A DNA stretch of 64,000 nucleotides, taken from Escherichia phage vB_EcoM_KWBSE43-6. Positions 55,996 through 58,662 of the stretch are shown here, piece after piece. The notes beneath the pieces were generated by a model that saw nothing but the letters and a program-made list of their open reading frames with translations, was not told the origin of the DNA and searched no databases. Each line of letters starts with the position of its first letter. Position 1 is the first letter of the stretch. The stretch is taken from the sequence record NC_048186.1. The stretch is one strand, 5' to 3'. The translations under genes and the position numbers were made by a program.

Positions 55996-58662
55996 AAAAT
56001 CTTTTAATTCATATTGTCGTGGACAATACCAAGACAGAGGGTTGGAATCTCTTATCCTATAGCGACCCATAAACCGTTTGATCAGTCCGGCCTAAAGGAT
56101 TACCCACGACAATATGAACTGTTTACTCTTTGGTCTGGGGGAGGATTTACCTCCCCCATTCCTCCCGGTTTGGGCAGCGATCTCTCACTCAACCAGGGCG
56201 CCGGCAAATTTTAGATCAATTCTACAGGTTTGTAACCGCGCTGTCGCCAAGTCATGTTGCTTCTCCTATCATTATTTGACCGCACATATGGCGGGCCGGG
56301 TTGTAATAGTTGAGTTGTGAACAACCAAGGGCTGCTAGACCTTTTATCCCGTTTGCGCATGATCAGTTCATGCGAGTCTTATCAAGCACCTTACGGCAAC
56401 TCTTCTGGATGTCATCGCCCTGCTGCCAGGCTCATCCCAGGAGTTTATTTTTCCAGGGCTTTCCACTTACAAGTCTTAACCAGACCGGGATACGGGCTTG
56501 TAAGATCGGGTTGGACACAACTTTGAGGACACTGACGACGTCTACTAGTCACCCATAACTGATATTCGGATGCCAGTATCCTCAAAGTTGCAACCAATGT
56601 CGCAACTCGCAGCTTCCATACAGAAGCAACTTGTCCTCTAACGCTCGGACCAAACGAGGCTGGCTGGTTGATTCAGAGCCGCTGGTTGCTCCAGCAAGCA
56701 TGGGTTGATAGCCCGGCAACATAGAATCACCCAAAGATGAAGAACACTCAGTGGTACAAGCCAGGGATACCAATTTCAGGTCCTTTGCGAGTTCTTTAAT
56801 GCTCTTCATTTTGTGAACTTGAGAATACTATACCTGTCTCGGGTTTCCCCTTAGTACGGTCACTCATTGTTCGTCACACCAGGGAGCTACCCTTGATGGC
56901 CCGCTTATTTTGAGTTGTTCCTGGTGCCCACCAGTGTCCGGAATGTATAGGCATCGCAGTCTACAAGGCACTGATCTTTTTCGCCCAGCGCTCTCTCAAG
57001 TTCACAAATCGAAGTGCCCTGACTCAACAGTTGTGGCCCAACATATTGTTATCGTCTACCGGGCTGGCCGTCCACTTTGTAGATCAACCTTTGGGTTTAA
57101 GATAAATTGTCAAGGCACTTCGATTTGGGTGCCCTTCACCTGCCAGGGATCAGGGCTGATGGCAAGACTTCGCTCACATCTGGGAGGTATCTCTTATCCG
57201 GATTCGAACCGGATTTATCCTGGCAGAGGAATCTAACCCCTTCACCTTGTCTTCACAAGGACGGTCAACAGACCTCAAGATACCTCCCAGATGTGGAGCC
57301 GTTTTAGGGAGTCGAACCCAAATGCTCGGCCAGCGCTGACCTTACATCCCACCTGACTTAGGCAACCCACCTCTGCTTACTCAGGAGCTTATCCCCTTTA
57401 GACAGTCAGATATAACGGCTTTGGGATTGGAGGGAGGAATCGAACCTCCCAGGGTGCTCCCCAAATCAGGGGCTGGCTCACGCCTGAAACCTGTTTAAGC
57501 ACCTGCTCCGCTCATTGTCGGCGGGAGATTATTAATCACACCCTCCCGCCTATTTTAGTGCGCCGAATTTTGTTATGAGGAATCGGAAGACCTCACTGAC
57601 TTATAGGCTATTACGCCGCCATCAGAACTACATCATCGTTTGCATTTATCTTTGTGGTCAGTTTCTAAAAACCCGCAAAGTCGCGCACAACGAGAACGAA
57701 AACCTGTTTGAGCACAAGACGCCATGTCCTGGATCACATCGAAGTGTTTGTCTAATGCCCAAACAGCTTTTCGCTTCAGTGGGTTAACTATACTTTGTTA
57801 ACCCTTATTGACAAAACTTTAAATTATTTTGCGGTGGTCGGAATCGAACCGACAGCTGGTTGAGCGCAGAGTCTTAGGAGAAGGTGCTAACCCGACCATC
57901 ACCAGCAAGCGTCGCACGGGACGCCTATCCTCGTCTGCCTATGTTCGCACACCATTCCTGTGCGTTCACCGCAATCTAATTTACCGGAACTTACGCATCC
58001 AGCCTCGCCCTGTTGGCGCTCCTAGAATCCGGGAAGACAGTAGGAACAATTATGTTACCAACAGGAAACCTTTGTGTTGCCCTTTGACGCAACATTATGA
58101 ACCCTCTTTAGAAGACTCATAATGTTGTCGGTGTGATGAGGATTACCAGCCCTCGACCTTCCCATCGTGCGGTGTCGACTCGCCGCCGGGATGCTCTCGT
58201 TCCTCTCCTGTAGATCGATATCAGGCAACCAACAGTGGTAACTTTCTGAGCTAATCACACTTTCAACAGGGAGTTTCGTTCTCCGACGGTCAGTGCGTCC
58301 ACTAACACCAGCAGGGTTACTGCGCTGCCTCTATTCACACAAGCCCCTGAGACTAGGGATTAACTGGTTTCGGGTTCAAGCCTACTCCCACTGTGCTGTT
58401 TCCCTTGAAATTTTATGATACTGCAACACGGCTAATTTGAAAAGTCCTCTCCTCTTGAGCAACAGGACCTGAAATCCTGCGGCGAACCTCTGCTCAAAAC
58501 CCGGTGCGCTATCGAAGGCGCTTTGCCAGAGTAAACATCGGGTGTTCCTAGGAGAGTGAAGGCCATCCCGATGATGAGGATAAGGAGTAACGCTATGATT
58601 ATCATACTGTTCCCTCCCTTCCATGCAACTTACTTTACTGTAATTCTGTATTGAATAAAGCG

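Follow-up and report, generated by a model that had tools for sequence, protein, structure and literature searches.

RNAC and RNAD (species 1 and 2) of phage T4, small non-transfer RNAs, are transcribed together with the T4 transfer RNA (tRNA) region, and their function is still unexplained (PMC3014915; PMC9697503). Bacterial Y RNAs, among them YrlA of Salmonella and Mycobacterium and Yrn1 of D. radiodurans, measure 80-130 nucleotides (nt) and are modular: a long stem formed by the two ends is joined to a tRNA-like domain with a true T-arm. In the model of Yrn1, the 'anticodon arm' consists of 5 bp capped by a 6-nt loop; Y RNAs are not aminoacylated and are thought to serve as protein tethers (PMC4201824). 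The intervening sequences (IVSs) of enterobacterial 23S rRNA, found in helices 25 and 45, are about 100-200 nt long, have complementary ends and replace a tetraloop with an extended stem-loop; their occurrence is sporadic, they spread by horizontal transfer, and RNase III removes them with no subsequent ligation (PMC4990558; PMC8708148). In the present study, we analysed a stretch of 64,000 nt of sequence record NC_048186.1 (Escherichia phage vB_EcoM_KWBSE43-6), hereafter the window, and found that a 121-nt unit running from 57295 to 57175 (minus strand) is a genuine structured-RNA cassette of tRNA-like shape, so far without annotation, set in a conserved helix of an operon of tRNAs and non-coding RNAs (ncRNAs).

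The unit belongs, by location, with the small non-tRNA RNAs of phage tRNA gene clusters. As described, RNAC and RNAD, from a large virulent myophage of enterobacteria, likewise lie among tRNA genes; they differ in that they are not known to lie in a helix of about 19 bp or to be exchangeable, and the Ackermannviridae locus studied here holds many more modules. By analogy, we regard T4 RNAC and RNAD as the closest conceptual precedent. In topology, the unit appears to be most like the Y RNA Yrn1, with which it shares a long terminal stem, a T-arm and a hairpin (hairpin 2) with 5 bp and a 6-nt loop. However, Y RNAs are defined by Ro60/Rsr binding, an adjoining Ro60 gene and a stem motif that binds Ro (for YrlA, GNCGAAN0-1G), and the Y RNA stem is bulged and protein-binding, whereas the helix of the unit is a perfect duplex. 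The GNCGAAN0-1G motif is absent from the unit, and no Ro60 or TROVE domain neighbour was found among the 10 large open reading frames (ORFs) of the window, which covers 64 kb of the genome of about 158 kb, the neighbours being tRNAs, ncRNA modules and tail/baseplate genes; a YrlA/Ro60 link was thus rejected. The unit adds a novel form to kinds of element already known, namely the small RNAs of phage tRNA clusters, tRNA mimics and IVS-like elements.

The sequence-only reading of this DNA had reported two 12-mers, TGGGAGGTATCT (57181-57192) and AGATACCTCCCA (57278-57289), as an inverted repeat, and both the coordinates and the perfect pairing proved correct. The repeat search showed that the repeat exceeds this first claim, with arms of 18 nt at 100% complementarity (57175-57192 and 57278-57295) and 85 nt between them, and a U·G pair extends the closing helix to 19 bp. 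Chance alone would produce about 1.1 perfect repeats of 12 bp within 300 nt per 64 kb, whereas the expectation for a perfect 18-bp repeat is only about 3e-4. The five best inverted repeats of the window all lie within 56008-57295, and that of the unit is the sole perfect long one in the entire window. The closing helix encloses an 83-nt core with four hairpins (Table 1), arranged from 5' to 3' as GA, hairpin 1, GU, hairpin 2, UGA, hairpin 3, 10 nt, the T-arm and AA. The predicted fold of the unit has a free energy of -60.9 kcal/mol, its minimum free energy (MFE) structure is identical to the centroid, and none of 200 shuffled sequences was as stable (z = -7.4). Hairpin 1 is identical in the window and in phages IME250 and EspM4VN, and hairpin 2 allows two readings, a stem of 5 bp with 6 nt in the loop and one of 6 bp with 4 nt in the loop.

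The hairpins reported earlier inside the repeat, CCGG-ATTCGAA-CCGG at 57196-57214 and CCTTG...CAAGG at 57245-57260, are both present, and because ATTCGAA is the complement of the T-loop UUCGAAU, the correct reading of the element is that of the minus strand, on which the tRNAs also lie. The plus strand folds equally well (z = -8.2), and the T-loop consensus occurs on the minus strand only. On this strand, the closing stem is followed by a D-like, an anticodon-arm-like and an extra- or variable-arm-like hairpin and a canonical T-arm, an order like that of the class II tRNA cloverleaf and of tRNA-Sec. The T-arm carries a loop of the GTTCRANYC type near the 3' acceptor strand, as AUCCGG-UUCGAAU-CCGGAU. 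The suggestion of a tRNA-like shape with an over-long acceptor stem therefore stood as a matter of secondary structure, for the minus strand alone, on which the T-arm adjoins the 3' strand of the long helix; by ARAGORN and Rfam, the unit is not a tRNA.

In its other parts, the unit departs from tRNAs. A tRNA has a 7-bp acceptor stem, a discriminator base and a CCA end that is either free or encoded, whereas the closing helix of the unit has 19 bp, is closed and lacks a free or conserved CCA. The D-like loop has 4 nt and no GG, a linker of 10 nt precedes the T-arm, and hairpin 2 has 16 nt in all three distinct copies, compared to an anticodon arm of 17 nt with a 7-nt loop and U33. A functional CCA end within the 3' arm after processing was considered and rejected because the CCA-like CCCA of this arm is not conserved, being CACA in EspM4VN and CUAA in units of another type (type D, described below). 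The tRNA model RF00005 (threshold 29 bits) had no match even at E<=10 on a 151-nt stretch, and Rfam searches of the window at the gathering threshold, and of 6 kb and the 151 nt at E<=10, returned only noise (tRNA-Sec, 11.9 bits; FMN, 9.5 bits). ARAGORN in the default, -ps and intron modes called no tRNA or transfer-messenger RNA (tmRNA) in the unit at normal thresholds; with the threshold lowered (-ps90 -i), it was forced into a tRNA-Phe(GAA) call by introducing an 8-nt 'intron'. A standard or permuted tmRNA was likewise rejected, as ARAGORN found none and no tmRNA match lay inside the unit, the weak sub-threshold matches lying elsewhere, at 57611-57875.

The sequence-only reading had named a lack of conservation of the repeat in relatives as a possible refutation; the helix is in fact retained, with covariation, by about 200 related phages. 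In every relative, downstream of a tRNA-like RNA of about 126 nt, the framework CATCT-NN-GAGG-N6 / N6-CCTC-NN-AGATG was found with varying contents, and comparison of these loci showed that the contents fall into five non-homologous types within the same helix. Type A is the 83-nt core of the unit studied here, found in the window and four phages. Type B has only a 4-nt loop (KP6, P01, A221, cp16, PH4, fGh-Ecl02 and Madison), type C has a degenerate T-arm (the three phages RCIP0012, May and EspM4VN), type D has a palindromic hairpin and a true T-arm (69 records of Salmonella and Escherichia phages), and type E has a core of about 97 nt without a T-arm (119 records). The types cross genera: A, B, C and E occur in Taipeivirus, and B, D and E in Kuttervirus. 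What is exchanged is the core together with the upper helix, nearly the entire helix being swapped and not the loop alone.

For the analysis of covariation, the helix arms of 11 distinct units, covering the five cassette types, were aligned and joined by a synthetic linker. Among these units, 96.3% of cells were paired, and 7 of the 17 pairs had changed on both sides; the covariation score was 0.41, compared to 0.13 for shuffles, none of 500 of which reached it, and in slid controls at most 54% of cells were paired. Conservation of the closing helix across Ackermannviridae, with covariation, is thus shown by the aligned arms. The base of the helix, CATCT/AGATG, is invariant across all unit types. 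Furthermore, pair 15:24 is U·G in 7 of the 11 units and would be A·C on the opposite strand, which favours an RNA on the tRNA strand. The hairpins of type D show wobble-only changes that indicate the same strand, and the type E core shows a structure-preserving change between GGCAGTAATGCC and GGCGGTAACGCC.

Outside the window, the type A core was found only in phages K5lambda5 and phi1_175010 (100% identity), IME250 (98.8%) and EspM4VN (91.8%). A search of IMG/VR returned only IME250; the metagenomes held no type A core, and their 27 matches to the upstream T-arm motif were due to chance save for one type B contig; the bacterial genomes and E. coli genomes scanned had no match. In EspM4VN, the type A unit lies at a different position, after a type C unit and another module, with its own helix and no 126-nt RNA upstream. 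Because four non-homologous units replace it elsewhere and its position differs in EspM4VN, the unit behaves as a horizontally exchanged cassette.

The window and EspM4VN copies differ at 11 of 121 positions, of which six form three compensatory pairs, four lie in the loop of hairpin 2 and one lies in a junction. Two of the compensatory pairs are in the helix (G-C to U-A and G-C to C-G) and one is in the stem of hairpin 2 (U-A to C-G), while the four central bases of the hairpin 2 loop are replaced (GAAG to UGCC). No pair is broken, and the EspM4VN copy has the same MFE fold. When 11 substitutions were placed randomly, a mean of 5.7 pairs was broken, the probability of breaking none was 2e-4, and the probability of three or more being compensated was 4e-5. 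Since the observed substitutions, unlike those placed randomly, break no pair and include three that are compensated, this substitution pattern shows the fold to be under purifying selection. The loop of hairpin 2, at the anticodon position, is the sole freely varying part.

The roughly 4 kb flanking the unit are 93-97% identical to Klebsiella phages of about 158 kb (Ackermannviridae, genus Taipeivirus), and on the strength of this identity the window is that of a Taipeivirus-like Ackermannviridae Klebsiella phage. Seven tRNA genes lie on the minus strand at 54308-55995, the flanking ORFs match baseplate/tail PHROGs, and between 54.2 and 58.2 kb there are nearly no credible ORFs. About 3.5 kb holding the unit are framed by a minus-strand promoter-like site, which retains 95.5% identity in EspM4VN, and a strong terminator (Table 1). 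Adjoining this region, a 67-amino-acid (aa) ORF at 58055-58258 (minus strand) has a strong match to phrog_38060 and a weak match to an HNH-endonuclease PHROG, and on account of these matches it may be a homing-endonuclease remnant. Among the tRNA genes, a second tRNA-Tyr(GTA) at 55044-55114 (minus strand) scores 41.5 bits with Rfam, compared to 58-76 for the other tRNAs; at only 71 nt it is short for tRNA-Tyr, and it may be degenerate or unusual.

Table 1. Positions of the parts of the 121-nt unit and of neighbouring features in the window, with their strand and basis
Feature	Position	Strand	Basis or remark
Closing helix, 5' arm CACAUCUGGGAGGUAUCUU	57277..57295	-	Fold, repeat search and covariation
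Hairpin 1, GGUC-UGUU-GACC, D-arm position	57263..57274	-	MFE and centroid fold; without D-loop GG
Hairpin 2, CCUUG(U)-GAAG-(A)CAAGG, 16 nt, anticodon-arm-like	57245..57260	-	Fold
Hairpin 3, AGGGG-UUAGAUU-CCUCU, 7-nt T-loop-like loop, variable-arm position	57225..57241	-	Fold; invariant in every copy
Canonical T-arm, AUCCGG-UUCGAAU-CCGGAU	57196..57214	-	2-3 nt ahead of the closing helix 3' arm
Closing helix, 3' arm GAGAUACCUCCCAGAUGUG	57175..57193	-	Fold, repeat search and covariation; compensatory pairs in EspM4VN
Upstream tRNA-like RNA, about 126 nt, GCCGUU...GGGUUCGACUCCC...AACGGC-U-CCA	57294..57419	-	Context of the unit, not part of it
Sigma-70-like promoter, TTGTCA-16-TATAGT	57787..57814	-	10/12 matches; candidate start of the ncRNA/tRNA transcription unit
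Intrinsic terminator after tRNA-Gln	54232..54255	-	10-bp stem, then CTTTTTTGTT; likely end of the ncRNA/tRNA transcription unit
I4, 19-bp closing helix, 85-nt core, no T-arm	57005..57127	-	z = -6.2; stem covaries between GTGCCTTGAC/GTCAGGGCAC and GTTCTCTGGG/CCCAGAGAAC
I1, 24-nt arms, 169-nt core	56801..57017	-	z = -4.2
I2, closing helix of at least 20 bp	56511..56597	-	z = -6.6
I3, closing helix of about 25 bp, element reported earlier at 56010-56116	56008..56118	-	z = -4.6

Of 197 phage records, 186 carry the tRNA-like RNA upstream of the unit with 95-100% identity, and in none is it annotated as RNA. It has an acceptor stem of 6-7 bp, a long arm, an extra arm, a T-arm (GGG-UUCGACU-CCC) and an NCCA end, and neither ARAGORN nor Rfam called it. 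At its CCA end, the RNA adjoins or overlaps the closing helix: in the window, C57295 and A57294, the first two bases of the 5' arm, are the CA of this CCA. Divergent copies in GEC_vB_N6, May and bering carry compensatory changes. A role like that of a mini-tmRNA is suggested by the short frame in the long arm, which ends in UAA, but the RNA has no G3·U70.

Considering these results, we tentatively favour, with a confidence that falls somewhat short of even, the following scenario: the unit is a selected, horizontally exchanged structured-RNA cassette that is probably released by RNase III and acts as a tRNA mimic, its processing and function being what we infer. Transcription from the promoter-like site near 57.8 kb would yield the unit together with the tRNAs. 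RNase III cuts the processing stems of rRNA, the IVSs of 23S rRNA and the hairpins of T7 early RNA, and by analogy the host enzyme may cut the closing helix, which has the length of about two turns; such processing is made plausible by the clustering within 1.3 kb of the window's five best inverted repeats, all of them helices with arms of 18-24 nt and one of them that of the unit. The cut could free the CCA end of the ~126-nt RNA for trimming and could also release the core as a stem-closed small RNA shielded from exonucleases. The acceptor-like helix and the T-arm, which together resemble the 'top half' of a tRNA, might then be bound by a factor that recognises tRNAs, the core serving as a mimic, decoy or tether, and the loop of hairpin 2 may set the specificity; the core itself would be incapable of aminoacylation or decoding.

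Several points weigh against this scenario. The proposed cleavage by RNase III is based on the helix length and the analogy given above, and no TROVE or RNA-enzyme domain that might mark a partner protein was found in the 10 large ORFs of the window. There are only three distinct type A sequences, so that hairpins 1 and 3 and the T-arm rest on invariance and energy and not on covariation. The identity of the unit between the window and EspM4VN, 90.9%, is not above that of the neighbouring modules (89-95%). The compensating changes of the outer helix would be equally expected of a DNA hairpin. Since many relatives have the bare type B hairpin, the core as such is dispensable to the phage. A search of the literature on Ackermannviridae tRNA-like RNAs and transcriptomes found nothing relevant to expression or processing. 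A bolder form of the scenario, which we consider quite improbable, would make the ~19-bp helix of Ackermannviridae a universal slot of the tRNA operon for recombining small-RNA cassettes, that is, an RNA accessory hotspot. The type A cassette would then be a non-aminoacylatable tRNA mimic, its specificity set by the anticodon-like loop, which reads GAAG in the Klebsiella and Serratia phages and UGCC in an Enterobacter phage; it could be a decoy for host defences that target tRNAs (anticodon nucleases, for example) or, in the manner of a Y RNA, could tether a host enzyme that binds tRNA.

The unit could instead be an IVS-like selfish or neutral insertion, in which an extended stem-loop took the place of the tetraloop in a conserved processing hairpin and is excised by RNase III and discarded, the core being functionless. 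Its complementary ends form a long stem, type B relatives have the same helix with a 4-nt loop that the unit would have replaced, and its distribution is sporadic and does not follow taxonomy; rRNA IVSs behave in exactly this way (PMC4990558). The core is also dispensable because most phages are without it. The unit lies in a phage tRNA/ncRNA operon and not inside an rRNA helix, and, unlike the 23S IVSs, which have no tRNA-like core, it has a selected core in a slot that takes five unrelated ones. However, this core is under purifying selection with a compensatory pair in hairpin 2, about 70 of its nucleotides being invariant while the loop of hairpin 2 is fully replaced; the type E and type D cores also change in structure-preserving ways, and exchange reaches beyond the loop to nearly the whole helix. 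We consider an insertion of this kind unlikely. The cloverleaf-like layout, the perfect T-arm and the position in a tRNA cluster of phage-variable content would also suit a decayed tRNA gene caught between the arms of a conserved hairpin, its shape being an evolutionary remnant, and the tRNA-Phe(GAA) call with its 8-nt intron and the weak tRNA-Sec-like alignment point in the same direction. When the unit was compared to 36 distinct tRNAs of these phages, however, similarity was confined to the T-arm (elsewhere, a score of 19 against a null mean of 18.6), and descent from a real phage tRNA was rejected because the likeness stops there. The tRNA model found no match at E<=10, the substitutions are non-randomly placed, and the 16-nt length of hairpin 2 and all junctions are kept between distant copies, suggesting that decay from a tRNA has little chance of being correct.

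A small chance may likewise be given to an element that acts at the level of DNA, either a palindromic mobile element like a miniature inverted-repeat transposable element (MITE) or a recombination or homing site, with the repeats CACATCT...AGATGTG acting in DNA. The invariant helix base CATCT/AGATG in every type, the altered position in EspM4VN, the patchy distribution, the HNH endonuclease genes in this region of some relatives and the equal folding of the plus strand (z = -8.2) are consistent with it. On the other hand, the unit is single-copy in each genome and without paralogues, no transposase or integrase lies nearby, the G·U pairs, being strand-specific, speak for an RNA read from the tRNA strand, the internal hairpin covaries, the canonical T-loop is oriented as in the tRNAs, and no copy was found in the bacterial genomes, E. 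coli genomes or metagenomes scanned. The unit does not conform to a MITE or small transposon: despite the terminal inverted repeats, it is single-copy in the window and in each relative (EspM4VN having two different units), and no target-site duplication is visible at its borders. A chance inverted repeat, a terminator or a coding segment is refuted by the results, leaving it a negligible probability. Taken alone, a 12-bp repeat would occur by chance about once in 64 kb, and some public records annotate small 'hypothetical proteins' here; the real repeat of 18-19 bp, however, has an expectation of about 3e-4 and is conserved and covarying. The helix is followed by GUGAGCGAAGUC, with no U-tract, and the terminator scan reported none there, so that an intrinsic terminator was rejected. 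A protein-coding segment was rejected as the overlapping ORFs at 57107-57307 and 56910-57236 (both plus strand) have no PHROG matches, and the ORFs here, without family support, are disrupted by cassette exchange.

The cassette lies among other modules with long stems (I1 to I4; Table 1). Element I3 sits 10 nt upstream of tRNA-Met and shows compensatory changes relative to the Vi01-type copy, and the stems of I3 and I4 have several compensatory changes between their Taipeivirus and Kuttervirus versions. Alternative pairings are possible because one arm of I1 overlaps one arm of I4. The proposal that the unit and the element at 56010-56116 belong to a family of long-stem RNAs was borne out in architecture, with five long helices in 1.3 kb and covariation in two sibling stems, but not in homology. 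The best match between the two is a 14-mer, which 4 of 500 shuffles equalled; as it is the only match and is not kept in that element's own relatives, homology was rejected. The sequence-only reading had proposed a covariance-model search; run over the window and over 25 loci, such a model of the unit recovered nothing beyond self-hits and one weak match that came through the shared helix, and no paralogue was found. A 75-aa ORF with an ATG start at 56582-56809 (minus strand) begins inside the 3' arm of the I1 helix and has no family match.

Further tRNA-like modules were observed in the region, all on the minus strand. Just upstream of the promoter-like site, an uncalled tRNA-like element lies at 57830-57973, in which an acceptor-like pairing of 7 bp (UGCGGUG...CACCGCA) and a T-arm of canonical form (GUCGG-UUCGAUU-CCGAC) surround a body of about 110 nt; a sub-threshold permuted tmRNA match of Rfam at 57611-57875 (25.5 bits, gathering 47) overlaps its 3' part. 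A module of about 94 nt at 57421-57514, with the T-arm GGGAGG-UUCGAUU-CCUCCC, is also present in RCIP0012, absent from A221, cp16 and PhiSH19 and swapped for a different insert in IME250, and represents another variable cassette. At 55813-55913 lies a tRNA-like module of about 101 nt, GGGGCGAUAG...GAGG-UGAAAAU-CCUC-AGACCCC-G-CCA; because this module is downstream of tRNA-Met here and upstream of it in Vi01 and other Kuttervirus phages, modules are evidently shuffled between phages. The spacer between tRNA-Tyr and tRNA-Gln (54382-54541) contains a T-arm-like hairpin, CCAG-UUCGACU-CUGG (54400-54414), followed by CGUACCUCUCCCA, which may be a further tRNA-like remnant or module. In phage P01, an insert of about 170 nt (P01 locus 2776-2990), located at what corresponds to window position ~56609-56614, scores 53.6 bits with the Rfam model STnc100 (gathering 47); the window is without it, and the insert is another modular insertion in the ncRNA operon.

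In public records of phi1_175010 and GEC_vB_N6, the region that corresponds to about 55.8-58.2 kb of the window is filled with 13-23 coding sequences (CDSs) for 'hypothetical proteins' of 30-70 aa on both strands, and one 64-aa ORF in such records is labelled 'RNA ligase'. These CDSs probably reflect structured-RNA genes that have been systematically misannotated. A stretch of about 2 kb, left blank in annotations or given as 'hypothetical proteins' of 30-70 aa, is carried by about 200 sequenced Vi1-like phages, several of which have been used or proposed for biocontrol and therapy. The stretch is a dense array of covarying structured RNAs and is partly modular, with one conserved helix holding five unrelated cores that are swapped across genera. 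If the cores are true functional tRNA mimics, they would constitute a new class of phage accessory RNA, and the natural swap variants A, B, C, D and E would provide ready-made isogenic tests. The array may also shed light on the role of the non-tRNA small RNAs in phage tRNA clusters, such as RNAC and RNAD of T4.

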